Positions 7,268-62,768 of a stretch of DNA of 64,000 bases are shown piece after piece. The notes below the pieces were generated by a model. That model worked only from the letters and a program-made list of their open reading frames with translations. It was not told where the DNA came from and did no database searches. The stretch lies in contig CAZKTO010000004.1 of the NCBI GenBank assembly GCA_964555685.1, forward strand, positions 10,858 to 74,857, read 5' to 3'. How positions within the stretch are numbered: the stretch's first letter is position 1; every line of letters starts with the position of its first letter. The position numbers were made by a program, and so were the translations under genes. The DNA is from an uncultured Dehalococcoidia bacterium (GTDB taxonomy: Bacteria > Chloroflexota > Dehalococcoidia > SHYB01).

Positions 7268-7321
7268 ATTGGGTTTCGTGGAATTGGCTATGATTGGGAT
7301 GCACGGCTAGGGGCGCTGAAT

Positions 7322-7473
7322 GAAGCTTCCCGCAGCTTGCTGCGGGGCTTCTGGTGTCCGAACAATCGTGATCACAGCAGGAAGAGTATGGCCCTCTCCC
7401 TCCTGTCCCTCTCCTGCAAGGAGAGGGACGATACCCCCTTCCTCTTTAGGCAAGGGGGCCAGGCGGTTAGGGC
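7322..7473 (+). repeat. Composite repeat: GAAGC..CCGCAGCTTGCTGCGG..CTTC hairpin plus a type-A bipartite element (7391..7473)
   Basis: Near-identical inverted copy at 62312..62464. The type-A core is also close to the 18130..18215 copy. Confidence 0.85.
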
Positions 7474-16144: not shown

Positions 16145-17011
16145 CTACTGCCCCCATCGGCCCGAGGGCGTCATCCGCCAGCCGGCCGCGGCTATCGTCC
16201 CGCCGCCGACGTGGATCGTCTCGCCCGTAATCCACTCGGACAGGTCCGAGGCCAGGAAGATCGCCGCCCCGCCGAAGTCCTCCGGGTAGCCCCGGCGGCT
16301 CAGGGGCACCTGGGGCAGCGGCTCCTTCGAGTCGAAGAGGGGAGCCATCTCCAGGATGCCCGGCGTCACCGTCACGTCCGGCGCGATCTCGTTGACGCGG
16401 ATGCCCAGCGGCGCCACCTCGAGCGCCAGGCTCTTGGTGAAGTTCGCTAGCCCGGCCTTCGCTGCCGCGTAGGGCGTGTACCCCGGCGCCCCGCGGTACG
16501 CCTCGATAGTCGTGAAGTTGATGATGCAGCCCGCCCCCTCTCCGGCACGGAGAGGGGGCGGGCTGCCTGCGGCGGGCCGGGGATGAGGGTAGCCCTTGGT
16601 CCTGGCGGCTTGCATGGCCCGCACGGCGCCCCGGCTCCAGCGCATCGCCTGGACCAGATTCAGGTCGATGGCGTTCATCCACTCCTCGTCCGTCATCGCC
16701 ATGAAGTCCTTGTGGATCGTCCCGCCCAGGTTGTTCACCATGATGTCCAGCCGGCCCAGCTGGCGCACCGTCTCCCCGATGACGCGGTCCACCGTGGCCT
16801 GCTGGCGGCAGTCGGCGGCGAAGGCCAGCGCCTTCCGGCCCAGGGCCCGCACCTCCTGCGCCGCCTCCTGGAGCTCCCGCTCCTTCAGATCAACCAGCAC
16901 GATGTGGGCGCCGAAGGCGGCCAGGCACCGGGCCACCGCCCGCCCGATCCCTCCCGCCGACCCAGTCACGATGGCGACGCGGTCCGTGATCAGGGCCTTT
17001 TGCGGATTCAT
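16145..17011 (-). CDS. SDR oxidoreductase, tandem paralogue 1, carrying a 21-aa repeat-derived insertion
   Basis: VTGSAGGIGRAV, YAAAKAG. It is collinear with 17031..17876 except for the extra YPHPRPAAGSPPPLRAGEGAG. Confidence 0.85.
   Translation of the reverse strand: MNPQKALITDRVAIVTGSAGGIGRAVARCLAAFGAHIVLVDLKERELQEAAQEVRALGRKALAFAADCRQQATVDRVIGETVRQLGRLDIMVNNLGGTIHKDFMAMTDEEWMNAIDLNLVQAMRWSRGAVRAMQAARTKGYPHPRPAAGSPPPLRAGEGAGCIINFTTIEAYRGAPGYTPYAAAKAGLANFTKSLALEVAPLGIRVNEIAPDVTVTPGILEMAPLFDSKEPLPQVPLSRRGYPEDFGGAAIFLASDLSEWITGETIHVGGGTIAAAGWRMTPSGRWGQ
16529..16591. repeat. 63-nt in-frame insertion inside the SDR CDS, containing a perfect 15-nt-arm palindrome (16529..16563: GCCCGCCCCCTCTCC ggcac GGAGAGGGGGCGGGC)
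   Basis: The hairpin core CCCCTCTCCGGCACGGAGAGGGG is identical to hairpin 1 of the 18000 copy. The paralogue lacks exactly these 21 codons. Confidence 0.85.
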
Positions 17012-17030: not shown

Positions 17031-17876
17031 TCACTCCAGTGGCCTGCCCGAGTAGACCTGGGCGCTCACGCCGTCGGTGCTCCAGTGGCCCGAGGGCGTC
17101 AGCTTCCAGCCGGAGGCGGCGTTGGTCCCGCCGCCCACGTGGATCGTCTCGCCCGTCACCCACTCGGACATCTCCGAGGCGAGGTAGAGGGCGGCGCCGG
17201 CGTGGTCCTCGGGCCGGCCCCGGCGGCGCATGGGGATGTGGCTTGGGATGCCCGCCTTCTCCCAGTCCGGCCGCAGCTTGAGGACGCCGGGAGTCACCGT
17301 CGCGTCGGGCGCGATGGCGTTGACCCGGATGCCCCACGGCGAGAGCTCGAGGGCCATCGTCTTGGTGAAGTTGGCCAGGCCGGCCTTGGCGGCGGCGTAG
17401 GGCGCGTAGCCCGGCGCCGCCCGGTACGCCTCGATCGTCGTCACGTTGATGATGGAGCCTCGCGTCTTCCGCTCCATCATCACCTGAGCCGCCGCCTTCG
17501 TCCACCGGAACGCCTGGACCAGGTTCTTGTCCACCGACTCCATCCACTGGTCCTCCGTCATCTCCATGAAGAGCTTCCGGATGGAGCCGCCGGCGTTGTT
17601 GACCATCACGTCGATCCGTCCCAGCTCCCGGACCGTCTCCGCGATGACCCGCTCGACGGTCGTCTGCTGGCGGCAGTCGGCGGCGAAGGCCAGGGCCTTC
17701 CTCCCATGCCCGCGCACCTCGCGCGCCGCCTCCTGGAGCTCCTGGCTCTTGATGTCCACCATGACCACGTGCGCCCCGTACTCGGCGTAGCAGCCCGCGA
17801 TGGCGCGGCCGATCCCTCCGGCGGCCCCGGTGACGATGGCGACGCGGTCGGTCAGCACGGCCTTCTCTTGGTACAT
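17031..17876 (-). CDS. SDR oxidoreductase, tandem paralogue 2
   Basis: VTGAAGGIGRAI, NNAG, YAAAKAG. It is highly similar to 16145..17011. Confidence 0.9.
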   Translation of the reverse strand: MYQEKAVLTDRVAIVTGAAGGIGRAIAGCYAEYGAHVVMVDIKSQELQEAAREVRGHGRKALAFAADCRQQTTVERVIAETVRELGRIDVMVNNAGGSIRKLFMEMTEDQWMESVDKNLVQAFRWTKAAAQVMMERKTRGSIINVTTIEAYRAAPGYAPYAAAKAGLANFTKTMALELSPWGIRVNAIAPDATVTPGVLKLRPDWEKAGIPSHIPMRRRGRPEDHAGAALYLASEMSEWVTGETIHVGGGTNAASGWKLTPSGHWSTDGVSAQVYSGRPLE

Positions 17877-17999
17877 CTCGGCTGCCTCCTCGGCGATGGT
17901 TCGGGCCCGGCCCTCCCCGACAGGTCGGGGTCCACGATGGCGTTCGCGGAGCCCGGGCGCGCCCCATGATACCAGCCGCGCGAAGGCCCGCCCGGCTCA

Positions 18000-18114
18000 C
18001 TGCCCTCTCCCCCGTCCCCTCTCCGGCACGGAGAGGGGCGCACCGTATCCCCCTTCCCTCGCAGGGAAGGGGGCCAGGAGGTTAGGGCCGGTCTTGCCAC
18101 CAGAGTTTAGGCAT
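18000..18114 (+). repeat. Type-A bipartite element (18000..18089) plus a 25-nt tail identical to the 5' end of the thiolase-like gene
   Basis: CTGCCCTCTCCCCCGTCCCCTCTCCggcacGGAGAGGGGCGCACCGTATCCCCCTTCCCtcgcaGGGAAGGGGGCCAGGAGGTTAGGGCC, then GGTCTTGCCACCAGAGTTTAGGCAT. Confidence 0.9.
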
Positions 18115-18129
18115 CCTGTGCAGCCCTCG

Positions 18130-18215
18130 CTGCCCTCTCTCTCCTGTCCCTCTCCTGAAGGGAGAGGGACGATACCCCCTTCCTCTTTAGGGAAGGGGGC
18201 CAGGGGGTTAGGTCC
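18130..18215 (+). repeat. Type-A bipartite element (variant shared with 7391 and 62312)
   Basis: CTGCCCTCTCTCTCCTGTCCCTCTCCtgaagGGAGAGGGACGATACCCCCTTCCTCTTTAGGGAAGGGGGCCAGGGGGTTAGGTCC. Confidence 0.9.
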
Positions 18216-18297
18216 GCCCTTGACCCTTTCCTGGGCCCACTCTACAATCCGCCTCAGAGAGGCGGCCCGGTCCCCCGCGCCGCCCAAGGAGGCGACC

Positions 18298-19700: not shown

Positions 19701-19714
19701 CAGTACTCAGTCAC

Positions 19715-19991
19715 GGTAGATTTGAAAGACCGACTGTGCAGTTCTCACTGCCCTCTCCCCCGTCCCCTCTCCGACACGGAGAGGGGCGCTCCGTATTCCC
19801 CCTTCCCTCGCAGGGAAGGGGGCTAGGGGGTTAGGGCCGAGGCACGGTGGATTTGAAAGACCGACTGTGCAGTTCTCACTGCCCTCTCCCCCGTCCCCTC
19901 TCCGACACGGAGAGGGGCGCACCGTATTCCCCCTCCCTCGCAGGGAAGGAGCCAGGCGCCGTCCTGAGCCTGCCGAAGGAGGGTTAGGGCC
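19715..19991 (+). repeat. Tandem duplication of a ~131-bp unit, each unit being a 33-nt flank plus a type-A element (cores 19748..19838 and 19879..19991)
   Basis: GGTAGATTTGAAAGACCGACTGTGCAGTTCTCACTGCCCTCTCC... repeats at 19846 with 1 mismatch in the flank. Unit 2 carries an extra GCCAGGCGCCGTCCTGAGCCTGCCGAAGGAG segment that is also present in the 34003 copy. Confidence 0.9.
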
Positions 19992-24762: not shown

Positions 24763-27342
24763 TCACTGCAACACCCCCAGCGCATCCAGCTCGTCGACGC
24801 GCCGGGGCGGCAGGCCCAGCTCCCGCTCCAGCGCATCCCGCGTGTGCTCGCCCAGGAGCGGCGTCCCCCGTTGCACCACGTGCGGCGAGCGGCTCATCAG
24901 CCATGGCGGGCGCATGCTCACCGGCCGGCCCAGCTTGGCGTGATCGAGGGTCAGGAAGAGCCCGCGCTCCTTCAGGTGCGGGTCCTCGGCGATGCGCCGG
25001 TTGCTCATGGACGGCATGGCGGCCACGCCCGCCGATTGGAGCAGCCGCGTCACCTCGTCGGGCGTCTGGCCCCCCGTCCACGCCGCCACCACCGCCTCCA
25101 GCTCGCTCTGGCGCTGGCGGCGGCCGGCCGCCGTCGCGAACCGGGCGTCGCGGGCCAGGTCCTCGCGGCCCATGGCCAGGCACAGGGCCCGCCACTCCTC
25201 GTCGGTCGCCACGGCGACGCTCACCCACTGGTCAGACCCCGACACGTCGGGGCGCCCCGCGCACCGGAAAACGCCGTGGGGCGCCATCCGCGGGTGGCCG
25301 TTGCCCAGCCGCGGCGGGAGCCGGTTCGCCAGGCCGACCTCGGCGAAGGTGTGCCCGAAGAGGCAGGCGATGGAGCCGTACGAGGCCATGTCGATGTGGC
25401 GCCCCCGGCCGGTGCGCGCTCGTTCCAGGAGCGCCGCCAGGACCGCCAGGGCGATGGTGGCCCCCGCTCGCATGTCCAGAGGCAACTGGAGGAGCGCCGG
25501 CGGGCCGTCCGGGTAGCCCGTGATGGCGCTGAGCCCGCTCAGCCCGGAGAAGACGGCGGCGACGCCGGGGTAATCTTTCTGGGGCCCCGCCGGGCCGAAG
25601 CCCGAGGCCGAGACGGTGACGATCGAGGGGTTCATCTGGCGGAGCACGCCGTGCCCCAGGCCCAGGTCCTCCATGACCCTTGGCCGCATGTTGTCCACCA
25701 CCGCATCGGAGATGCGGACCAGGTCGTGCACCAGCTCTAGCGCCTCGGGCCGCTTCACGTCCAGCGCCACGCTGCGCTTGTTCCAGTTGAGCGCGTGAAA
25801 GTCAGGCGAGGCATCGGGGTCGCTCCCGGACACGACGACGAAGTCCAGGTAGCGGGCGATGTCCAGCCGCTGGCGCGACTCGATCTTGATGACGTCCGCC
25901 CCCAGGCATGCCAGCAGGTGCGTGGCGATGGGCCCGGCGGCCACCCACGTGAACTCGACGATGCGATAGCCCGCCAGCGGTAGAAGGGGACCCTTCGGCA
26001 AGATAGGTCCTTCCCCTTCGAGACTCAGGGTCAGGACTCGCTTCGCTCGGCTCAGGGCAGGCTCTGACCCCACCCCGACAGGTTGGGCCGACTCGCCGGC
26101 CTTCCCGGCACGGGAAGGGGGCAGCCGTGGACCCGGTCCCTGGCCTTCGGCCGGCCCCTCGCCTTTGGGGGAGGAGAGGCCGAACTCGTCCAGGACCTGC
26201 TCCGTATGCTCGCCCAGACGCGGCGCACGCGGAAGGAGGCCGCTGGCGCCGGGCAGGAAAGAGAGGGGCCTGGGCAGCGTCACGCGACGCCCGCCGGGCG
26301 CCTCGACCTCGCCGAAGAGGCCGATGGCCTTCGCCTGGGGCGCCTTGAGCACCTTGTCCGCCGTGGGGAACCAGGCCACGAGCATCCCCCGGCTCTCCAG
26401 CATCTCGAAGACCTCTTCCCCCGTCTTGTCCGAGAGCCAGGCGATGATCTCCGGGTGGACGGCGGGCAGGTTCGCCCGGCGCTGGGCCGCGGTGACGAAG
26501 CGCGGCTCCTTCACCCACTCGGACCGGCCCATGAGCGCGGCCAGCCGCTCCCACTGCTCCTGCCGGTGAAAGGTCAGGAAGACCCACCCGTCCTTGCACG
26601 GGAAGAGCGTCGTGTTGGGCACCTCAACGGTGTAGCGGCCCGAGAGCTGGCCGCGGTTCAGCCAGAGGTCCATGGCGATCCGGGAGGCGTAGACCTCGGC
26701 CTCCCAGCGCGACAGGTCGATGTGCTGGCCGGCGCCGTGGGCGTCCCGGACGAAGAGGGCGGCCAGCACCGCGTCGGCGGCGAGCAGCCCCGCCGTGTAG
26801 TCGGCGATGAGGCCGCCCGCCTGCATCGGCGGACGCCGCGCGTAGACCTGCGGCGGGTGTCCGATGACCGGGGGCAGCATGTACGCCTCGCCGCCCGCGT
26901 GGGCGATGGTGAGGCTCTCGGCCCGCCATCCGGCGCAGGGGCCCGTCTGCCCGAAGGGCGTGATGGAGACCTGGACTAGCGACGGATTACCGGCGCTCAA
27001 CGACGCGTAGTCGAGCCCGAGACGCCGGGCCTCCTCCGGCGCCAGGTCGTCGATGAGCACACCGGCCCGGGCGGCCAGACGGCGCAGGGTCTCGCGCCCC
27101 TCGGCGCCGCGCCAGTCGAGGGCCACGCTCTCCTTGCCGGCGTTGCAGTAGAGGTAGAGCCCGCTGCACTCGGGGTCGGGGCCCGTGAGGGGGAAGGGCC
27201 CGTGCGCCCGCGACGGGTCGCCGCCGGTGGGCTCCTCGATCTTGACGACCCGCGCGCCCAGCTCGGCCAGCAGCCGCCCGCAGTAGGGCCCGGCCACGTG
27301 GGAGGCGAGCTCCAGGACAAGCGCGCCGGCTAGCGGTTGCAC
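24763..27342 (-). CDS. 859-aa tandem fusion of two family-III (CaiB/BaiF) CoA-transferase modules joined by a ~55-aa repeat-derived linker
   Basis: Module 1 starts MQPLAGALVLELASHVAGPYCGRLLAELGARVVKIE. Module 2 starts ...LPLAGYRIVEFTWVAAGPIATHLLACLGADVIKIE. There is no stop between them. The linker DNA (~26002..26175) contains GGCTCAGGGCAGGCTCTGA-type repeat sequence. Confidence 0.8.
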   Translation of the reverse strand: MQPLAGALVLELASHVAGPYCGRLLAELGARVVKIEEPTGGDPSRAHGPFPLTGPDPECSGLYLYCNAGKESVALDWRGAEGRETLRRLAARAGVLIDDLAPEEARRLGLDYASLSAGNPSLVQVSITPFGQTGPCAGWRAESLTIAHAGGEAYMLPPVIGHPPQVYARRPPMQAGGLIADYTAGLLAADAVLAALFVRDAHGAGQHIDLSRWEAEVYASRIAMDLWLNRGQLSGRYTVEVPNTTLFPCKDGWVFLTFHRQEQWERLAALMGRSEWVKEPRFVTAAQRRANLPAVHPEIIAWLSDKTGEEVFEMLESRGMLVAWFPTADKVLKAPQAKAIGLFGEVEAPGGRRVTLPRPLSFLPGASGLLPRAPRLGEHTEQVLDEFGLSSPKGEGPAEGQGPGPRLPPSRAGKAGESAQPVGVGSEPALSRAKRVLTLSLEGEGPILPKGPLLPLAGYRIVEFTWVAAGPIATHLLACLGADVIKIESRQRLDIARYLDFVVVSGSDPDASPDFHALNWNKRSVALDVKRPEALELVHDLVRISDAVVDNMRPRVMEDLGLGHGVLRQMNPSIVTVSASGFGPAGPQKDYPGVAAVFSGLSGLSAITGYPDGPPALLQLPLDMRAGATIALAVLAALLERARTGRGRHIDMASYGSIACLFGHTFAEVGLANRLPPRLGNGHPRMAPHGVFRCAGRPDVSGSDQWVSVAVATDEEWRALCLAMGREDLARDARFATAAGRRQRQSELEAVVAAWTGGQTPDEVTRLLQSAGVAAMPSMSNRRIAEDPHLKERGLFLTLDHAKLGRPVSMRPPWLMSRSPHVVQRGTPLLGEHTRDALERELGLPPRRVDELDALGVLQ

Positions 27343-27856: not shown

Positions 27857-27865
27857 GACGGTGTT

Positions 27866-28330
27866 TTACCTCTCCCCCTTCCCCTCTCCCGCAGGGAGAG
27901 GGGCGATCTGTGTTCCCCCTTCCCGCGCCGGGAAGGGGGCCAGGGGGTTAGGTTCCACGCTGGCTAGGTCAGCGATCCGAGCTAGAACGGCAGCGAGGTT
28001 TGCCCTGATGTCCCTGTTCGGCACGCGGAGAATCCTCAGATCTCGGGCCGCGAGGAGCTGATCACGCGCCGCATCATATTCCTTTTGACGTTGGTGGCTC
28101 GGACTATCCACTTCCACAACAAGGGATGCCGCGTGACAGTAGAAGTCTACGATAAAGCCATCGATCACTTGCTGGCGGCGGAAGTGGAGGCCGTGCAGTC
28201 GGTTAGCCCGTATCGCCTGCCAGAGAGTCTGTTCCTCTGGTGTCATATAGCGGCGCAACGACTTGGCAGCCTCAAGCTTCTCGGCTGCTACCTTTTGTCC
28301 GACCACTACTCCACGTCTTTCCATACGCAA
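27866..28330 (-). CDS. DUF559 (Vsr/restriction-endonuclease-like fold) protein, AT-richer, with its C-terminus read out of a type-A repeat
   Basis: LRRYMTPEEQTLWQAIRANRLHGLHFRRQQVIDGFIVDFYCHAASLVVEVD...RDQLLAARDLRILRV is typical DUF559. The last ~30 aa (NPLAPFPAREGG...) are repeat translation. Confidence 0.8.
   Translation of the reverse strand: MRMERRGVVVGQKVAAEKLEAAKSLRRYMTPEEQTLWQAIRANRLHGLHFRRQQVIDGFIVDFYCHAASLVVEVDSPSHQRQKEYDAARDQLLAARDLRILRVPNRDIRANLAAVLARIADLASVEPNPLAPFPAREGGTQIAPLPAGEGKGER
27869..27956 (+). repeat. Type-A bipartite element
   Basis: CCTCTCCCCCTTCCCCTCTCCcgcagGGAGAGGGGCGATCTGTGTTCCCCCTTCCCgcgccGGGAAGGGGGCCAGGGGGTTAGGTTCC. Confidence 0.9.
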
Positions 28331-28340
28331 CCTTGTTCGA

Positions 28341-28428
28341 CCTCTCCCCCGGCCCCTCTCCTGAATGGAGAGGGGCGCACCGTATCCCCCCCTTCCCCAC
28401 TGGGGAAGGGGGACGGGGGGTTAGGTCC
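28341..28428 (+). repeat. Type-A bipartite element
   Basis: CCTCTCCCCCGGCCCCTCTCCtgaatGGAGAGGGGCGCACCGTATCCCCCCCTTCCCCactGGGGAAGGGGGACGGGGGGTTAGGTCC. Its TTA (28421..28423) is the thiolase-like gene's stop codon on the other strand. Confidence 0.9.
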
Positions 28429-29611
28429 CCCTCCTCAAGATAAACGCTCCCGTGGGGTCGCTGTTGGCCGCCATGACGACGACGGCGCGGGCGTTGGGCG
28501 CCTGCGTCGTCGAGGCGCCGCGGATCTGGCGCACCGCCTCTAGCACGTTGTTGAAGCCGTGGATGAAGGCCTCCGAGTGCTGCCCGCCGTGGGTGTTCAG
28601 GGGCAAGCGGCCGCCGGGCCCCTCGAGGGCGCCGCCCTCGGAGAAGGGGCCGGCCTCGCCCCGGCCGCAGAAGCCCAGGTCCTCGAGGGCCAGGAGCGCC
28701 ATGGGCGTGAAGTGGTCGTAGACGTACGCCGCGGCGATATCCTTGTGCTTGAAGTCCGACTGCTCGAAGAGCCTTCGGCCCAGGCCCGCGGCCATGCGGT
28801 CGCGCGGGAAACGGAACCAGTCGCTGAGCTGGTAGTGGGCCGGCTGCACGTGCTGGGCGAAGGCGTGGACCACGGCCGGCGGCTGCGGCATGCTCCGGGC
28901 CTCCTCGGCGCGCGAAAGCACGACGGCGCAGGCCCCGTCCGTCTCGATGCAGCAGTCGAGGAGGCGCAGCGGGTCGGCGATCATGCGCGATTGGTGGTGG
29001 TCCTCCGGGGTGATGGGCGTGCGCATGACGGCGTTGGGGTTGCGGGAGGCGTGCTTGCGTAGCGCCACGGCCACGTTGGCGAAGTGGTCCTCCGTCCAGC
29101 CGTAGTCGTGCATGAGGCGCCGGGCGATGACCGCCATCTCCTGCGCCGGGCTCTGGATGCCGAAGGGCACGTGGTACTGGCCGTGGCTCGCGATGCGCGG
29201 CTCGACCTTCTCCCACGGGCGCCCGCCCTCGCTCGTACCGGGGCCGAAGACGGACCTGCGCCCCCTCGCCCGCGAACGGTAGGCGACGAGGTGCCTGCAC
29301 AGCCCGGCGGCGACGCCCAGCGCCCCGTGTCCAACGACAGCGGCGTAGGCCCCGCCCCCGTGGGGCTGCGTGACATAATAGCCGGCGTTCCCGATGCCGA
29401 GGAGCTGGTAGAGGTGGTTGTTCAGCCCCTCCACCTGGAGGTTGTAGCAGGAGACGCCATCAATGTCTCTGGGTGTGAGGCCCGCGTCGGCGATGGCCTT
29501 GAGGATGGCCTCGGCGGCCATGCTCCACTCGGACCGGTTCAGCCCCTTCCCGTACTCGGTCTGGCCGATGCCGGTGATGGCGACCCCGTCTTGCCACCAG
29601 AGTTTAGGCAT
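28421..29611 (-). CDS. Thiolase-like protein (SCP-x/Ltp-type, 396 aa), paralogue 1
   Basis: MPKLWWQDGVAITGIGQTEYGK..., ...DCCIETDGACAVVL..., ...LNTHGGQHSEAFIHG... . ATG 29611 is preferred because upstream is repeat DNA. Confidence 0.85.
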   Translation of the reverse strand: MPKLWWQDGVAITGIGQTEYGKGLNRSEWSMAAEAILKAIADAGLTPRDIDGVSCYNLQVEGLNNHLYQLLGIGNAGYYVTQPHGGGAYAAVVGHGALGVAAGLCRHLVAYRSRARGRRSVFGPGTSEGGRPWEKVEPRIASHGQYHVPFGIQSPAQEMAVIARRLMHDYGWTEDHFANVAVALRKHASRNPNAVMRTPITPEDHHQSRMIADPLRLLDCCIETDGACAVVLSRAEEARSMPQPPAVVHAFAQHVQPAHYQLSDWFRFPRDRMAAGLGRRLFEQSDFKHKDIAAAYVYDHFTPMALLALEDLGFCGRGEAGPFSEGGALEGPGGRLPLNTHGGQHSEAFIHGFNNVLEAVRQIRGASTTQAPNARAVVVMAANSDPTGAFILRRGT

Positions 29612-29618
29612 GCTTATC

Positions 29619-29732
29619 GCCCTCTCCCCCAACCCCTCTCCTGAAGGGAGAGGGGCGATTCCCCCTTCCCTACCAGGGAAGGGGGCCAGGGGGTTAGGGT
29701 CTCCCCCGGTCCTGCCACCAGAGTTTGGTCAT
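29619..29732 (+). repeat. Type-A element (29619..29701) plus a tail that duplicates the thiolase 5' end (29708..29732)
   Basis: GCCCTCTCCCCCAACCCCTCTCCtgaagGGAGAGGGGCGATTCCCCCTTCCCtaccaGGGAAGGGGGCCAGGGGGTTAGGGTC ... GGTCCTGCCACCAGAGTTTGGTCAT. Confidence 0.9.
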
Positions 29733-29741
29733 GCTGGTTCC

Positions 29742-30443
29742 TTACGGCCGGCTCCGATAACACGTGTCACACAACGGCTTCGCATATGTCACCATCGTCT
29801 CTTTGCCGCAAGCGTGGCAGAACTTCTCCGGGTAGTTCTCGTTTTTCCACTGTGCCCACTCGTTGTAGCAATTGTCACAAAGCGGCTTCTCTTGGTCTAA
29901 GGCAATGTCAGCGCGACAGCGGATGCAGACGCCCTCAGGGGCTCTCGGATCACGGGCGCGGGCGCTTGGTCGGCTGGTTTGCTGTTGAACGTTCTCCACC
30001 GGCTCAGCGAGGCGCCTTAATGTGTTGTCCACGTAATCACGGATGTGTGTTTGAAGCGCTGGGTCAGCTACAAGGATCGCGATCTCTCGCGAATTCGCGA
30101 ACGACCCTTTGGTGAAGTTAATAGAGCCGATGACCACCGAATGTTCATTGAGATATATCTTCGCGTGTAGACCAGGGACGGATTGAACCTTTATCCGGTT
30201 CTCCTGCAACCATTCGATGTCGGCCCGCCGATCCAGTTGTTTTTGGGGGTCGTCCTCATACCTGACCAAGAACTCGACACGTACGCCGGATTTTGCTGCT
30301 ATACGTAATTCGTCTTTTGCATGGCCCCATAGGCCCAGGTAAGGAGTGACAATGACGGCGTGCCGTTTGGCGTCGCGGATAACACCGAGCACCGCAGAAT
30401 CGACTTCATCGTCCGAATAGAACGCCTTTCGGGATTGCTCCAT
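29742..30443 (-). CDS. Phospholipase-D-fold (HKD) nuclease-like protein with a C-terminal four-CxxC zinc-ribbon region; clearly AT-richer than its neighbours
   Basis: GLHAKIYLNEHSVVIGSINFT (H-x-K-x4-D/N...GS.N). The C-terminus reads CIRC...CDNC...CHAC...CDTC. It starts 7 nt after the stop of the upstream thiolase-like gene. Confidence 0.75.
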   Translation of the reverse strand: MEQSRKAFYSDDEVDSAVLGVIRDAKRHAVIVTPYLGLWGHAKDELRIAAKSGVRVEFLVRYEDDPQKQLDRRADIEWLQENRIKVQSVPGLHAKIYLNEHSVVIGSINFTKGSFANSREIAILVADPALQTHIRDYVDNTLRRLAEPVENVQQQTSRPSARARDPRAPEGVCIRCRADIALDQEKPLCDNCYNEWAQWKNENYPEKFCHACGKETMVTYAKPLCDTCYRSRP

Positions 30444-30450
30444 AAGAACT

Positions 30451-31641
30451 CTACTCCTTCCTCAGAATAAACGCCCCCGTCGGGTCGCTGGAGGCCGCCG
30501 AGACGACGACGGCCTTGCAGTCCGGCGCCTGCGTCGTGGACGTCCCGCGGACCTGGCGCACCGCCTCGGTCACGTTGTTCATCCCGTGGATGAACGCCTC
30601 CGAGTGCTGCCCGCCGTGGGTGTTCAGCGGCAGCCGCCCGCCCGGCCCCTCCAGCGCGCCGCCCTCCGAGAACGCCCCACCCTCGCCGCGACTGCAGAAG
30701 CCCAGGTCCTCGAGGGCCAGCAGCACCATCGGCGTGAAGTGGTCGTAGACCATCACCGCGCCGATGTCATTGGGCTTGAGATCGGACATGGCCCACAGGC
30801 GCCGTCCCAGCTCGAGGGCCATCGTGTCGCGGCCGTGCCGCCACCACTCGGTTAGGTGATAGTGGGCCGGCTGCGTGTGCTGCGCGACGGCGTGGATGAT
30901 GGCCGGCCTGTGTCTCAGGTTGCGCGCCTCGCCGGCCCGCGACACGACGACCGCCACGGCGCCGTCCGTCTCGATGCAGCAGTCGAGGAGGCGCAGCGGG
31001 TCGGCGATGATGCGCGACTGGTGATGGTCCTCGCGCGTGATGGGGCCGCGCGGCCTCATGACGGCGTGGGGGTTGCGGACGGCGTGCTTGCGCAACGCGA
31101 TGGCGACGCTGGCGAAGTGCTCCTCGGTGTAGCCGTAGTCGTGCATGAGGCGCCGGGCGATGACGGCCATCTCCTGCGCGGGGCTCTGGATGCCAAAGGG
31201 TACGTGGTACTGGCCCGTGCCGGGGATGCGCGCCGCCACCTTCTCCCACGGACGCCCGCCCTGGTCCGACCCGGGGCCGAAGACGGACTTGCGCCCCCGC
31301 GCCCGCGACCGGAAGCAGACGACGTGGTTGCACAGGCCCGCCGCGACCCCCAGCGCCGCCGAGATGACGACGCCTGCGTAGCTCCCGCCCCCGTGGGGCT
31401 GGTCGGCGTAGTAGCCGATCTCGCCCAGGCCGATCGTCTGGTGGAGCTGGTTCTCCCACTCGTCCTGGATGTGGTAGCGGACGACGCCGTCGATCTGCTC
31501 GGGCCGCAGCCCCGCGTCGTCGATGGCCTTGAGGATCGCCTCGGCGGCCATGTCCATGACGCTGCGGTTCAGCCCCTGGGAGAAGGCCGTCTGGCCGATG
31601 CCGGTGATGGCGGCCTTATCCTGAATGGGGCTCTTGGGCAT
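30451..31641 (-). CDS. Thiolase-like protein (SCP-x/Ltp-type), paralogue 2
   Basis: MPKSPIQDKAAITGIGQTAFSQ... . It is collinear with 28421..29611 over its whole length. Confidence 0.85.
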   Translation of the reverse strand: MPKSPIQDKAAITGIGQTAFSQGLNRSVMDMAAEAILKAIDDAGLRPEQIDGVVRYHIQDEWENQLHQTIGLGEIGYYADQPHGGGSYAGVVISAALGVAAGLCNHVVCFRSRARGRKSVFGPGSDQGGRPWEKVAARIPGTGQYHVPFGIQSPAQEMAVIARRLMHDYGYTEEHFASVAIALRKHAVRNPHAVMRPRGPITREDHHQSRIIADPLRLLDCCIETDGAVAVVVSRAGEARNLRHRPAIIHAVAQHTQPAHYHLTEWWRHGRDTMALELGRRLWAMSDLKPNDIGAVMVYDHFTPMVLLALEDLGFCSRGEGGAFSEGGALEGPGGRLPLNTHGGQHSEAFIHGMNNVTEAVRQVRGTSTTQAPDCKAVVVSAASSDPTGAFILRKE

Positions 31642-31665: not shown

Positions 31666-31881
31666 CTACGCGGCCCCTACTTCAACAAACTCCCCTTGGG
31701 AGCTGGGCGTTGGGACAGGCAGTCCCTGCCGCTGGAGATCCTCGATGTGCAACTTGATAGCCTCGCGGATGAGCCGCAGCAACTCCTTCCGGGTCTCTCC
31801 GATGGCTATGCACCCCGGAAGGTCCGGAACATGTGCGCCCCAACTCGTCTTGCCCCTCTCGACTACTACCATGTACCGCAT
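31666..31881 (-). CDS. hicB: HicB-family antitoxin
   Basis: MRYMVVVERGKTSWGAHVPDLPGCIAIGETRKE...IKLHIEDL. An alternative GTG at 31896 overlaps the hicA stop. Confidence 0.85.
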   Translation of the reverse strand: MRYMVVVERGKTSWGAHVPDLPGCIAIGETRKELLRLIREAIKLHIEDLQRQGLPVPTPSSQGEFVEVGAA

Positions 31882-31892
31882 GACGGCCTGCC

Positions 31893-32081
31893 TCACTTCT
31901 TCAAGCCAGCCTGTTTGAGCGCGGAGTTCAAGGTGCCCGGCGGGATCTCAAGGCTCGGTTTCCCAGCTACGGTCACAGTCCCCACCTTACCCGGGTGCTT
32001 GTACTGGCGATGGCTGCCTTTGGTTCGCACCAATCGCCACCCCTCCTTCTCTAGAAGCCGGATCAATTCTCTGACCTTCAA
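31893..32081 (-). CDS. hicA: HicA-family mRNA interferase toxin
   Basis: MKVRELIRLLEKEGWRLVRTKGSHRQYKHPGKVGTVTVAGKPSLEIPPGTLNSALKQAGL is the classic HicA sequence. Confidence 0.9.
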   Translation of the reverse strand: MKVRELIRLLEKEGWRLVRTKGSHRQYKHPGKVGTVTVAGKPSLEIPPGTLNSALKQAGLKK

Positions 32082-34002: not shown

Positions 34003-34114
34003 GCCCTCTCCCCCAGCCCCTCTCCTGAGCGGAGAGGGGCGCACCGCGTTCCCCCTTCCCTTGCAGGGAAGGGGGCCAGGCGCCGTCCTGAGCTTGTCGA
34101 AGGAGGGTTAGGGC
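34003..34114 (+). repeat. Type-A element, long variant with the extra GCCAGGCGCCGTCCTGAGC..GAAGGAG segment
   Basis: GCCCTCTCCCCCAGCCCCTCTCCtgagcGGAGAGGGGCGCACCGCGTTCCCCCTTCCCttgcaGGGAAGGGGGCCAGGCGCCGTCCTGAGCTTGTCGAAGGAGGGTTAGGGC. Confidence 0.9.
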
Positions 34115-36587: not shown

Positions 36588-36851
36588 TCTTTGAGAGACC
36601 CTTCGCTGACCGCCACGCTCGGCTCGCGGCTTCGGCTCAGGACTCGCGGAGTCTACCCTGAGCCTGACGAAGGGCTCGGCTCGACGACGCGGAGATGGCC
36701 GAGGGCCTGCGGGGCCCTGACCTCCTTGCTCTCCTTCGGCAGGCTCAGGACAGGCTCTTCCATGGCTGGCAAGGGGGCGCCTCCGCCTCTCTCTGCGCCG
36801 GCGAGGGGTCCGATCGTGGGCATCGCCATCATCGCCCGTCTTGCTCAGCGG

Positions 36852-48153: not shown

Positions 48154-48600
48154 TTAGGCCTCCACATCAATCCTCAAGAGGTGTCGAACTTTCCTCTCCA
48201 TTTGCAGACAACCGACAAGCGATTCCACTCGAGGTGGGACGCAATTCGAAAGTCCGATCAACTCTCGCGAGGCTTCAATCACCTTTTCACGGTCATGAAC
48301 CAGCCGAATCAATTGGAAAAACCGATACCACCTGAGTGTTTGAGCCGAGGCTCTTAAAGCTGCTGCAAGTCTGCGTAATTCATCCTGGGCGCGAATTAAT
48401 CTGTCCCGCGTGAGGTCTGTATAAGGCACTCCGTCCGGTAAAGGATTTGAATACTCGCGAGCGTGCACAACCAATGCTTGCGCAATCTCTTCGACAGTAC
48501 GGGCTTGGAATCGAATTCGTTCGATAAAAAGCACCACGACAATCTGTCCTAGCACAAAGACCGCTCCGGCGGCGACAGCCGATATCAATCCTTGGGTCAT
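48154..48600 (-). CDS. Orphan protein (148 aa, one N-terminal TM helix plus a helical domain), AT-richer than the flanks
   Basis: The ORF alone. It sits between the two MaoC paralogues. No family recognised. Confidence 0.55.
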   Translation of the reverse strand: MTQGLISAVAAGAVFVLGQIVVVLFIERIRFQARTVEEIAQALVVHAREYSNPLPDGVPYTDLTRDRLIRAQDELRRLAAALRASAQTLRWYRFFQLIRLVHDREKVIEASRELIGLSNCVPPRVESLVGCLQMERKVRHLLRIDVEA

Positions 48601-48663
48601 ATGTTTTGAGATACCCCAACGTCCCCGTTCATTAACCCACCACCTTCACCTGGTAGGGCGCTG

Positions 48664-48750
48664 GCCCTCACCCCTGGCCCCTCTCCTACCAGGAGAGGGG
48701 AGCGCGTGTTCCCCCTTCCCATTTAGGGAAGGGGGCTGGGGGTTAGGGCC
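48664..48750 (+). repeat. Type-A bipartite element bracketed by a ~25-nt duplication of the MaoC-2 3' end
   Basis: GCCCTCACCCCTGGCCCCTCTCCtaccaGGAGAGGGGAGCGCGTGTTCCCCCTTCCCatttaGGGAAGGGGGCTGGGGGTTAGGGCC. The flanks are 48636..48660 and 48755..48779. Confidence 0.9.
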
Positions 48751-50001
48751 CTATTCCACCACCTTCACGCTGTACGGCGTCAGGAACTCCGAGGGCTTGT
48801 GCTCGCCCGTCTCGCCGGGCAGGACGACGGGGCCCGCCTCCCGCGAGGGCAGGATCACCGTCGCCGTGCCGGGCGCCGTGATCTCCCCGCGCTGGTTCTC
48901 GACCCACACCTCCAGGTCCGCCATCCGGTGCTTGCCCTCGATGCGCTTCCGGACGATCTTCGCGTGCACCCACGAGGTGTCGCCCGTGTAGTTGAACCGG
49001 CGGATCTGGTCCGACTGCCGGTAGAGCCAGGCGTCGTCCCCCATCCAGCTGGTGATGAGGTTGACCATCCAGTGGGTGCGCATATTCCCGTAGTCGTACG
49101 AGCGGGGGTTGCCCACCTTTCGCGCCCGGGCGTCCTCCCAGTGCACCCGCTGAGCGCAGTCCCATGCGCCGTACTCGTTCTTCGTGTAGAAGGCCGGGAC
49201 GCGCCTCCGGTTCTTGTAGCCCATGCGCAGGGCGGCCACGCCGAACATCGCTCCGAAACCGCGCCCCGAGTGCCAGAGGATGACGTCCGTTACCGTGAGG
49301 GGCCCCCGCACGATGGCGGGCAGCTCCTCGCCCTCCCGCACGTCCTCCCAGGAGCGCGGCTCCCTGCCGCGCAGCGTCTCCCGCTCGTACGCCTCGTCGA
49401 TCTTTGCCAGGTCCTCGTCGGTGTACCTGGGCGCCTCGATGGCGGCGTACTTCCCCTTCTTCTCGGAGGCCTCGCGCTCGACGTGGAAGAAGTAGTTACG
49501 CTGGATGGCGACGAGCTCGTCCCGCTGGTTGATGAACTCGTGCTTGTGATGGACAACAGCCGCCGTGCCGCCGCCGAACTCGCTGCGCTTCTCCTCGACC
49601 TTCGAAAGATAGTAGCGCTGGGAGAGCCGGTCGCCCGGGCAGACGGGCCGGAGCCACGTCCACTCGGTGCCGGAGAGGTAGTTGGGCACGCCGCGCAGGG
49701 CCCCGGCGCCCTTGGCCCGGACGTCCGGCGGGATGGGCGGCGCGACGGAGATGCCCATGGTGCTCGCGTAGCCCGGCGCGCCGATGACGCCGCCCCAGCG
49801 GGTCTTGGCCGCGTACTGGGGGTCGCACCAGAGCGGATTGTCGTCGCCGTAGGAGTGGGCCTGGTGGCGGATCGTGTCCTCGGAGGCGACGGTGTTCCAG
49901 GGCCGGTCCTGGGGGATGAGGATGCCGATGCGCGCCCGCATCCGCTCGATCCCCTCGGGCGTGATCGTTCCCTGCATCTCCTCGGGCTGCTTCTCGGCCA
50001 T
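48751..50001 (-). CDS. MaoC-like double-hotdog acyl dehydratase/enoyl-CoA hydratase, paralogue 2
   Basis: Collinear with 46761..48017 (RHQAHSYGDDNPLWCDPQYAAKTRWGGVIGAP). ATG 50001 with GAGGAG 5 nt upstream is preferred over GTG 50013. Confidence 0.8.
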   Translation of the reverse strand: MAEKQPEEMQGTITPEGIERMRARIGILIPQDRPWNTVASEDTIRHQAHSYGDDNPLWCDPQYAAKTRWGGVIGAPGYASTMGISVAPPIPPDVRAKGAGALRGVPNYLSGTEWTWLRPVCPGDRLSQRYYLSKVEEKRSEFGGGTAAVVHHKHEFINQRDELVAIQRNYFFHVEREASEKKGKYAAIEAPRYTDEDLAKIDEAYERETLRGREPRSWEDVREGEELPAIVRGPLTVTDVILWHSGRGFGAMFGVAALRMGYKNRRRVPAFYTKNEYGAWDCAQRVHWEDARARKVGNPRSYDYGNMRTHWMVNLITSWMGDDAWLYRQSDQIRRFNYTGDTSWVHAKIVRKRIEGKHRMADLEVWVENQRGEITAPGTATVILPSREAGPVVLPGETGEHKPSEFLTPYSVKVVE

Positions 50002-50106
50002 GGCGCTCCTCACCCCGGTGCGATATCGGCGCCATTATAGGCGGCCCGGCGAGGTATCGCCATCGCGGGCGGGGTTCGTGGTGGGGTTAGCGTGGCGTGT
50101 TGTGTT

Positions 50107-62311: not shown

Positions 62312-62464
62312 GCCCTAACCCCCTGGCCCCCTTCCCTAAAGAGGAAGGGGGTATCGTCCCTCTCCTCGCAGGAGAGGGACAGGAGGGAGAGGGCCGCATG
62401 GCTCGTGCCGCAATCGCGATTATTGAGGCACCCAGAAGCCCCGCAGCTTGCTGCGGGGTGCTTC
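62312..62464 (-). repeat. Composite repeat (type-A element 62312..62394 in reverse orientation plus the GAAGCCCCGCAGCTTGCTGCGGGG..CTTC hairpin); inverted copy of 7322..7473
   Basis: The reverse complement of 7322..7473 aligns along the whole length with only scattered mismatches in the spacer. Confidence 0.85.
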
Positions 62465-62768
62465 ACTCTGAGCCCCGACGTGTCGGGGCGAAGAATCTGG
62501 GAGTGGGGTGGGGTTCTCACTCCCCTCTGCTCTGGAAGGGCCCCGCCCCAGATGCTTCGTCGAGGACTCCTCAGCATGACAGGGGCCAGCGGGCTCGTTG
62601 ACCGCACTGGTGTATGAATTAGGCCCTCTTGACAATTCTCCGGCGTTGTTGCAAACTTGATTTGAGACTAGTTCAAAACCGGGTCTGCATTCCGCGTACG
62701 GAGCGGCGCCAGCGACTCTCTCGGGTCCGCGGCGCCTGCGGGATGCGGCACCCACGGAGGAGGATCGC

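Follow-up and report, generated by a model that had tools for sequence, protein, structure and literature searches.

Duplicated gene ends flank a small structured repeat in the genome of an uncultured Dehalococcoidia bacterium

In contig CAZKTO010000004.1 of an uncultured Dehalococcoidia bacterium, we analyzed a stretch of 64,000 nucleotides (nt), hereafter the window, to which all coordinates refer and in which all copies were counted. Around 29.6 kb, the start of a thiolase-like gene, T1, stands on both sides of a short, highly structured repeat of a family that we call type A, and a further copy of the first eight T1 codons lies between two other type-A repeats at 18 kb. We propose, with moderate confidence, that the duplication at 29.6 kb was produced on the arrival of the type-A element, in the form of a long target-site duplication or through a template-switch insertion. 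Type-A elements are small structured intergenic repeats of a known sort; what is new about them is the unusually long flanking duplications that preserve gene ends.

The start of T1 is present three times

A scan of the window found the 24-mer GTCTTGCCACCAGAGTTTAGGCAT at 18091 to 18114 and at 29588 to 29611, with 0 mismatches in each place, and a third copy, GTCCTGCCACCAGAGTTTGGTCAT, with 3 mismatches, at 29709 to 29732. Matches were obtained in 0 of 100 shuffles, and no further copy was found in the 64 kb, even with 8 mismatches allowed. On the minus strand, the 24-mer reads ATG CCT AAA CTC TGG TGG CAA GAC, which is the start of T1. The scan thus confirms what a sequence-only reading of this DNA had noticed, namely, that the first eight T1 codons lie on both sides of a type-A copy and again at a third locus (Table 1).

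Table 1 Features of the three T1 start copies and of the other type-A copies with flanking duplications
Feature	Coordinates	Strand	Remarks
Type-A copy A1, left of the orphan 24-mer	17999..18090	+	19747/19878 subfamily (94%); 83% identical to the 29615 copy
x_c, orphan 24-mer	18091..18114	-	Identical to the derived working start; with C at 18115, forms a 25-nt spacer between two type-A copies
Type-A copy A2, right of the orphan 24-mer	18116..18217	+	Extended left end CTGTGCAG...; 62310/7388 subfamily (92-93%); 85% identical to the 29615 copy
Third case of flanking duplication	19709..19990	+	25-nt flank, 19709-19733 and 19840-19864, 23/25 identical; flanks type-A copy 19747-19840
T1, thiolase-like/lipid-transfer-protein gene	28421..29611	-	396 aa, starts MPKLWWQD; Pfam Thiolase_C_1; NCBIfam lipid-transfer protein
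x_a, downstream copy of the 31-nt duplication	29584..29614	-	Working start codon and codons 1-8; 24-mer at 29588-29611
Type-A copy between the T1 start copies	core 29618..29699	+	Two G+C-rich hairpins; imperfect terminal inverted repeat GCCCTCTCCCCC / GGGGGTTAGGGC
Relic mini-ORF MTKLWWQDRGRP-stop	29694..29732	-	12 codons; stopped by the TAA within the CCCTAACC end of the repeat
x_b, upstream copy of the 31-nt duplication	29705..29735	-	Original T1 start; 24-mer at 29709-29732 equals the L003 T1 start
PLD-like nuclease-type gene	29742..30443	-	C-terminal zinc ribbons; low GC, 0.53-0.56; between T2 and the original T1 start
T2, tandem T1 paralogue	30451..31641	-	Starts MPKSPIQD
Second case of flanking duplication, dehydratase gene end	48632..48779	-	Type-A copy 48662-48753 between the duplicates

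The two copies at 29.6 kb align in register over 31 nt (29584 to 29614 and 29705 to 29735), of which 27 are identical; the duplicated stretch consists of AGC before the ATG, the 24-mer, and 4 further nt. Followed in gene orientation, the locus runs from the TAA stop of the PLD-like gene through GGAACC into the upstream copy, AGC ATG ACC AAA CTC TGG TGG CAG GAC CGGG, and GGAGA, the reverse complement of the linker TCTCC that follows the type-A core at 29700 to 29704. It then continues with the type-A element, CCCTAACC...GGGAGAGGGCGA, followed by TA, the downstream copy, AGC ATG CCT AAA CTC TGG TGG CAA GAC GGGG TC..., and the rest of T1. In this orientation, the repeat presents a TAA stop first and, at its other end, a Shine-Dalgarno-like GGAGAGGG 9 to 16 nt upstream of the working T1 ATG. 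The upstream copy opens the relic mini-open reading frame (ORF), which retains the original ribosome-binding context, TAAGGAACCAGCATG.

The structure at 29.6 kb is not an artefact, because three other assemblies (JGI 3300010391, Logan SRR6155509, and Logan SRR12685296) are identical to it base for base; the contig of the last (L020) stops at the first bases of the repeat, at 29701. The exact T1 protein is on record in both NCBI and JGI.

Relatives identify the ancestral start and an empty site

In a protein search, the closest homologues of T1 all began M-x-x-LWWQD, and those of the T2 group had MPKSPIQD-like starts; starts recorded for T1 homologues were MTTLWWQD, MSELWWQD, MNKRWWQD, MSSLWWQD, MSKLWWQD, MPNLWWQD, and MPIWWQD. 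The most informative relative is a Chloroflexota metagenome-assembled genome (MAG), JACZVV010000017 (locus L003), with which the window is collinear from 27.4 to 37.1 kb. There, the T2 stop is followed by CCCT and then directly by the T1 start, ATGACCAAACTCTGGTGGCAGGAC, with no repeat and no PLD gene, and T2, T1, and a DUF35/ChsH2-like gene are contiguous. The related loci L012 and L013/L014 likewise have a single T1 start each, the order T2-T1-DUF35-CoA-transferase is ancestral, and the PLD-like gene is missing from all related loci in the synteny comparison.

The L003 T1 start is identical to the copy at 29709 to 29732. Compared with the orthologues in L003, L012, and L013, it is the working start that is derived, carrying ACC>CCT, CAG>CAA, and CGG>GGG, that is, the substitutions T2P and R9G and two silent changes. 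Judged by these alignments, the 24-mer is the native 5' end of T1, as the sequence-only reading had held: the M-x-x-LWWQD starts of orthologues, the repeat-free L003 start, and the absence of the 24-mer from the other full type-A copies in the window (~12) all agree on this. The polarity that the same reading gave to the two neighboring copies has to be reversed, however. It had taken the copy at 29588 for the original, whereas the comparison identifies 29709 to 29732 as the ancestral T1 start, because the repeat-free T1 of L003 begins with an identical 24-mer, and 29588 to 29611 as the derived working copy. By the same comparison, L003 represents the empty site for the type-A copy at the T1 start.

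Sequence scans with YTGCCACCAGAGTTTRGNCAT brought no other relevant relative. Among 185,579 species genomes, there were 5 matches, and a scan of a metagenome collection likewise gave 5; of all these, only L003 was relevant. The source genome of the window is outside both collections. The remaining matches of both scans were unrelated genes starting M(P/T/A/S)KLWWQ, and neither collection held the 24-mer in a type-A context elsewhere.

Type-A elements supply stop codons and, at three copies, have long flanking duplications

The window holds at least 13 full type-A copies and many half-copies. A full copy measures 83 to 95 nt and carries two G+C-rich hairpins between the arms of an imperfect terminal inverted repeat; the outer stem pairs at 10 of 12 positions both in the DNA fold and in the consensus of 10 copies, and the predicted fold is a three-way junction (z = -3.8). 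Rfam matched no family in the window, type A included, and the window ORFs examined yielded no transposase domain. At three places, a site filled in the window is empty in a relative: the T1 start and the 34 kb copy in L003 and the 48.7 kb copy in locus L016. A consistent orientation of type-A copies with respect to transcription was considered and rejected, because the 7388 copy, between plus-strand genes, has the opposite relative orientation.

The CCTAACC end of the element gives a stop codon to the upstream ORF in three junctions, those of T1, the relic ORF, and T2 of L012. For the T1 stop TAA (28421 to 28429), the CCTAACC end belongs to another type-A copy (28336 to 28429), and the T2 stop of L012 (7385 to 7392) is the TAA within such an end. 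The C termini are accordingly ...ILRRGT-stop in T1 and ...ILRGET-stop in T2 of L012, compared with a native form ...ILR(R/G)D-stop, and three junctions show a native G-run fused to the end of the repeat (GGGG/GACC, where the slash marks the junction).

At 29.6 kb, the direct repeats abut the element, and their alignment score of 42 was reached by 0.5% of unrelated flank pairs, which served as the null. A second duplication of this kind encloses a type-A copy at the end of a dehydratase gene (48751 to 50013). The last nine codons and stop of this gene, TPYSVKVVE-stop (48751 to 48779), are repeated as APYQVKVVG-stop (48632 to 48660), with 22 of 29 nt identical; dehydratase orthologues have this C terminus once and no repeat, as locus L016 shows. 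Directly after the relic C-terminus copy, between tandem dehydratase paralogues, is a low-GC ORF of 148 aa (48154 to 48600, minus strand), which had no match in Pfam, NCBIfam, or PADLOC and whose exact protein is not on record elsewhere. The third case, at 19.7 kb, is followed by a sister type-A copy with a period of 131 nt.

In a flank-versus-flank test of the full copies, flanking duplications of 31, 29, and 25 nt were thus present at 3 type-A copies, and ~10 others were at background; the same test gave no evidence of a short target duplication of fixed length. For the three copies, flank divergence and the divergence of the element from its nearest relative were 13% and 11%, 24% and 18%, and 8% and 6% (n = 3). 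Such tracking of copy divergence by flank divergence is expected if both date from one event.

Insertion of the element as the proposed source of the duplication

We infer that insertion and duplication at T1 were a single event. A type-A repeat of ~85 nt would have landed ~28 nt inside T1, at the G-run in codons 9 and 10, and in the same step ~31 nt of target (3 nt of leader, the ATG, and codons 1 to 9) would have been duplicated on both sides of it; alternatively, a template-switch insertion may have resumed ~30 nt upstream. The upstream copy would have been left with the old ribosome-binding site, coding only for MTKLWWQDRGRP before being stopped by the TAA of CCCTAACC. T1 would have survived because the downstream copy supplies a complete start codon and the repeat's GGAGAGGG sits at the position of a ribosome-binding site. 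Since the layout is seen again at a stop codon (48.7 kb) as well as at 19.7 kb, duplications of ~25 to 31 nt would seem to arise repeatedly as a by-product of the type-A family. The sequence-only reading had spoken of a ~27-bp target duplication around the element; its form holds, at 31 nt in register here and 29 and 25 nt elsewhere, and insertion may have been its maker.

Several points weigh against this proposal. Most type-A copies are without a flanking duplication, including those at the T1 stop (28336 to 28429) and at 34 kb, for which L003 provides the empty site, so a fixed long target-site duplication either is not general or is soon lost by decay. At both gene ends, the duplication stops 0 to 3 nt from the ORF boundary and the relic adjoins a low-GC foreign gene (the PLD-like gene and ORF 48154 to 48600, respectively), features that a recombination origin would predict more naturally. 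Relative to L003, the working copy holds all four changes and the relic none. The junction GGGGA/GACC(C)TAACC beside the relic recurs in L012, at its T2 stop, and could be the remnant of an older T2-repeat junction. We know of no transposase or parent element of type A. The 18 kb copy, finally, is not explained mechanistically by the insertion, and it is known from one assembly.

Recombination between diverged haplotypes and other possible origins of the duplication

The duplication could instead have come from illegitimate recombination of two diverged haplotypes, or from an imported cassette in which the foreign gene brought a piece of the donor T1 with it; we regard this origin as a serious alternative, though a less likely one. 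One parental haplotype would have had the order T2-PLD-T1 and the start MTKLWWQDR, with T2-PLD-ATGACCAAACTC...GACCGGG running straight into T1; the other would have been T2-typeA-T1 with the start MPKLWWQDG (T2-typeA-ATGCCTAAACTC, no PLD gene), its repeat fused to the T2 stop as in L012. If these were joined at one end by homologous crossover and at the other illegitimately, through GGGG microhomology, 26 to 31 nt of the donor T1 start would be stranded between the PLD gene and the repeat, and the 48.7 kb case would have the same origin. Homology-facilitated illegitimate recombination is documented in bacteria (PMC3240628).

Beyond the foreign genes directly beside both relics and the end of similarity at the ORF boundary, such an origin would account for copies that differ by 13% and 24%, like alleles of diverged lineages, and for a relic that equals the start of a distant orthologue when the working copy differs from it. 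The junction CGGGGGA/GACCCTAACC is similar to one at the L012 T2 stop, CGAGGGGA/GACCTAACC, in which GGGGA is the native T2 end (CGA GGG GAC), and other type-A copies at gene ends lack duplications. No donor was found, however, the nearest PLD homologue being 48% identical, nor was any contig found with either hypothetical haplotype; in a look-up made for alternative haplotypes, the exact T2 protein was not on record. Comparison of T1 and T2 with three relatives gave no mosaic signal or clear breakpoint, in a test of low power. Recombination predicts neither the similar lengths of 31, 29, and 25 nt nor the match between flank and copy divergence, leaves the 19.7 kb case and the 18 kb copy unexplained, and needs a homologous anchor at 48.7 kb for which 24% divergence is high.

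We think it unlikely that the element was inserted by an unrecognized mechanism with a ruler of ~25 to 31 bp that also deposits target-sized fragments of ~25 nt between elements already present, the 18 kb 24-mer then being a "spacer" taken from the T1 start. In such a scheme, two strand attacks would occur about three helical turns apart, in a geometry comparable to that of Cas1-type integration, and the duplications would be long enough to regenerate gene starts and stops.

The copy at 18 kb

The orphan 24-mer x_c abuts the ...GGTTAGGGCCG end of A1; one base on, the extended left end of A2 begins, the unextended start of which is at 18130. Identity to the gene start runs exactly from ATG to GAC, and the bases on both sides differ. 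On the minus strand, x_c opens a mini-ORF, MPKLWWQDRP-stop (18082 to 18114), and its size of 24 to 25 nt equals that of the 25-nt spacer in the 19.7 kb tandem. Its identity with the derived working start means that x_c was copied once the 29.6 kb pair had diverged, or that it has been kept identical. As their subfamily assignments indicate, the repeats next to it are not related as copies to the 29615 element. We therefore treat x_c as a separate, later event, in which a discrete patch, from the ATG to codon 8, came from the already-derived working start. Our guess is that it arrived through short-fragment capture or, if a break occurred between the two hairpin elements, through short templated repair there.

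The 18 kb arrangement is seen in this assembly alone, and the window comes from a MAG. The only other contig found (L015) starts at 18187, inside the second repeat; no independent contig was found for 17999 to 18186; and in look-ups of exact neighboring proteins, that of the SDR gene was not on record and the amidohydrolase was found only in a 1.5 kb contig that starts inside the repeat. Other assemblies, then, do break inside these repeats, as L020 also does at 29701. Even so, it is unlikely, and in our estimate decidedly so, that x_c is a chimera of short-read assembly across ~90-nt repeats and that only the 29.6 kb copies are real. The junctions GGGCCG/GTCTTG and GGCAT/CCTGTGCAG are unique and not present at 29.6 kb; reads containing them must therefore exist, as a k-mer graph cannot invent them. 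The flanking repeats, moreover, belong to other subfamilies.

The sequence-only reading had explained x_c by transduction: after a target duplication of ~27 bp, the 24-mer would have been carried with a type-A element to 18 kb by one-ended rolling-circle or retro-type mobilization. The 24-mer does abut the GGTTAGGG end at both 29709 and 18091, some type-A copies share extra flank (~80 nt in 7310 to 7473 and 62312 to 62476), and the 19.7 kb copies share a flank. The 18 kb neighbors, however, are of other subfamilies and only 83% and 85% identical to the 29615 copy, compared with 24 of 24 positions for the 24-mer, the sequence of which is that of the copy at the GCCCTCTCC side, whereas the copy at the GGTTAGGG side has another. 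Neither TCTCCCCCG nor GCTTAT, the linkers, was carried over, so that the sequences differ on both sides; there is no poly-A or terminal signature; and no Rep/HUH, reverse transcriptase, transposase, or integrase domain was found in the window ORFs examined. Transduction is thus very unlikely, and the types of mobilization invoked for it find no support here.

Other routes to 18 kb were tried and rejected. For Campbell-type integration of a small circle carrying a repeat and the 24-mer, and likewise for gene conversion from a tandem repeat-24-mer-repeat array, the repeat parts adjoining the 24-mer are not 29615-like and the linkers differ. A rearrangement or the remnant of a third paralogue was discarded because the order T2-T1-DUF35-CoA-transferase is ancestral and there is no further T1-like sequence nearby.

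It is highly improbable that the extra copies are kept for a function, whether as leader mini-ORFs (MTKLWWQDRGRP-stop and MPKLWWQDRP-stop), translated and ending in the repeat so as to couple translation through the hairpins, or, in the case of the 18 kb copy and if it is transcribed on the plus strand, as an antisense of 24 nt against the region of the T1 start. In favor, the relic shows no change from a distant orthologue and has retained its ribosome-binding context, both mini-ORFs stop at the TAA of CCCTAACC, and the 18 kb copy matches the working start perfectly when the relic does not. Recent copying accounts equally well for that identity, however; relatives are without the arrangement and hence provide no conservation signal; and the predicted fold leaves the 24-mer not clearly single stranded. 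The only sigma-70-like plus-strand promoter (18220 to 18248) lies downstream of the 24-mer, which would place the 24-mer outside the amidohydrolase mRNA, and an antisense regulator of T1 was rejected on the same ground.

That the gene start is itself repeat derived, the 24-mer being a ribosome-binding-site and ATG module of the type-A family, is effectively refuted: repeat families with such modules exist (Neisseria REP2; PMC3184786) and type A is modular, but repeat-free orthologues share the T1 start, no other type-A copy in the 64 kb carries the 24-mer, and the 24-mer is not even a decayed module, there being no match with up to 8 mismatches. The finding that the sequence-only reading had named as its own refutation, a 24-mer intrinsic to the repeat, was thus not borne out.

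Comparison with known repeats and recombination systems

In its behavior, type A is closest to the bacterial elements known as MITEs (miniature inverted-repeat transposable elements), the general properties of which are reviewed in PMC3184786, and to mycobacterial interspersed repetitive units (MIRUs). As with MITEs, the elements are ~85 to 95 nt long and noncoding, with an imperfect terminal inverted repeat and a very stable predicted fold; they occur in many dispersed and diverged copies, with filled and empty sites between relatives and fusions to neighboring ORFs. Typical MITE target duplications, in contrast, are of a few base pairs, whereas those of type A are 25 to 31 nt and are present at only 3 of ~13 copies, and no parent insertion sequence with matching ends is known for type A. 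The family is also modular: it has extra modules and half-copies, in which it is more similar to BIME or BOX mosaics.

MIRUs are G+C-rich units of 40 to 100 bp with imperfect inverted repeats that occupy tiny operon spacers, are cotranscribed, and overlap neighboring stop and start codons with their ends (PMC3184786). Type A resembles them in that the TAA of CCCTAACC ends T1, the relic ORF, and T2 of L012 and that the other end offers the Shine-Dalgarno-like GGAGAGGG. Unlike type A, MIRUs have tetranucleotide direct repeats and form tandem arrays, and duplication of gene ends is not described for them. In the case of Neisseria REP2, the repeat supplies promoter, ribosome-binding site, and ATG beside ORFs (PMC3184786), whereas here the 24-mer with its ATG is native to the gene and lies outside the repeat family. 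REP/REPIN elements consist of palindromes (~20 to 40 nt), commonly paired in inverted orientation, and have an associated RAYT gene, a Y1 transposase. The hairpins of type A are REP-like, but they form a fixed pair within an outer stem, and no Y1/HUH gene was found in the window ORFs examined.

Among bacterial transposable elements, we could document long target duplications, variable and of 8 to 514 bp, only for IS1549 and IS1634 of the IS1634 family (PMC2266710), which are thus a precedent for the flanking duplications seen here. These insertion sequences differ from type A in being autonomous and 1.5 to 2 kb long, with a DDE transposase; none such was found in the window ORFs examined, and they show no link to type-A ends. 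For the gene-end cases, a parallel can be drawn to homology-facilitated illegitimate recombination (the process is described in PMC3240628), which would strand a short piece of a donor gene beside foreign DNA with a join at a G+C-rich microhomology, as is seen in both cases. That process is known from transformation and conjugation experiments, whereas no donor haplotype was found here.

With LINE/SINE-type retroelements and in one-ended transposition of IS91/ISCR elements, DNA flanking an element reappears elsewhere beside an element of the same family. The 18 kb locus is unlike this: its neighboring elements are not donor copies, the piece is 24 nt long, and elements stand on both sides of it. 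Rolling-circle transposition of the IS91/ISCR kind, which relies on an HUH Rep-type transposase and separate origin and terminator ends, was rejected, since no such gene was found in the window ORFs examined, the 18 kb elements are not copies of the 29615 element, and the linkers were not cotransferred. Retro-type mobilization was rejected because no reverse transcriptase domain was found in these ORFs, there is no A-tail, and the flank is not contiguous with a copy of the donor element. Integron attC sites, which pair over their full length between an inverse core, RYYYAAC, and a core, GTTRRRY, were considered as well; the right end, GTTAGG(G/T), is core-like, but at the left end GCCCTCT stands in place of RYYYAAC, pairing in the hairpins is local and does not run end to end, and no integrase was found in the window ORFs examined.

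Implications

If the duplication is made at insertion, type-A insertions into gene ends would be harmless by design: a duplication of ~30 nt would always regenerate the start or the stop, and the element would bring a stop codon and a ribosome-binding site of its own. This would explain how such elements can come to fill the tiny operon spacers of a compact genome, and a novel mode of integration, with a stagger of unusual length, would be indicated. If recombination is responsible instead, the locus would preserve, cleanly and in nature, the trace of an illegitimate exchange between diverged haplotypes of an uncultured Dehalococcoidia-like lineage. In both cases, there is a lesson for annotation, in that the first ATG-LWWQD motif upstream of T1 is a relic and that repeat-derived stops and starts shape several ORFs of this genome.

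Neighboring genes and further type-A observations

Relative to L003, low-GC DNA has been gained at nearly every gene junction of the collinear region: a HicAB pair, the PLD-like gene, a DUF559 gene bracketed by type-A copies, and solo type-A copies. The HicA/HicB toxin-antitoxin pair (31666 to 32081, minus strand; GC ~0.60) lies between a CoA-transferase gene and T2, and L003 is without it. The PLD-like gene has a homologue, 44% identical, in a Chloroflexi MAG (JACPCK010000055, 3960 to 4760; L021), the only homologue whose genomic surroundings were inspected; it is also of low GC (0.50 versus 0.61 to 0.66). It is a single-gene insertion between operon genes, with a weak 19-nt direct repeat, TTGACTAAGGGCTT-TAAG / TTCACTGAGGGCTTGTAAG, across the upstream stop codon. 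In the stretch 27865 to 28429, the low-GC DUF559 gene, which has a Vsr-like endonuclease fold, is bracketed by two direct type-A copies and is located between T1 and its DUF35 partner gene; in L012, a DUF559 gene likewise follows immediately downstream of a type-A-like element, there placed between T2 and T1. It may be an autonomous or an associated partner of the type-A family.

The type-A family is a mosaic of modules, some copies being enlarged by an additional module inside, by an extension of the left end, or by ~80 nt of extra flank that they share. The last is seen in the copies at 7310 to 7473 and, inverted, 62312 to 62476, in which the type-A parts are 96% identical and ~80 nt of extra left flank is held in common, so that the shared stretch comes to 165 nt with 84% identity and represents either a composite, longer variant of the element or flank that was copied along with it. 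A small module, CGCCGTCCTGAGC(C/T)TG(C/T)CGAAGGAG, occurs within type-A copies between GCCAGG and GGTTAGGG (19957 to 19980 and 34083 to 34106 and also near 36756).

Type-A modules are also found inside coding sequences. An SDR ORF (16145 to 17011, minus strand) has a 21-aa in-frame insertion, GYPHPRPAAGSPPPLRAGEGA, at 16518 to 16580 that is encoded by half a type-A repeat, the CCCCTCTCC/GGAGAGGGG hairpin; its tandem paralogue (17031 to 17876) lacks the insertion, which resembles insertions of palindromic elements such as the Rickettsia palindromic elements (RPEs). An ORF of 859 aa (24763 to 27342, minus strand) comprises two CoA-transferase family III genes, separate in L012, joined by a linker of ~70 aa (25990 to 26180) built from repeat modules, namely, two hairpins (CCCCCTTCCC and CCCAACCTGTCGGGG) and a module of the GTCCTGA.. 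type.

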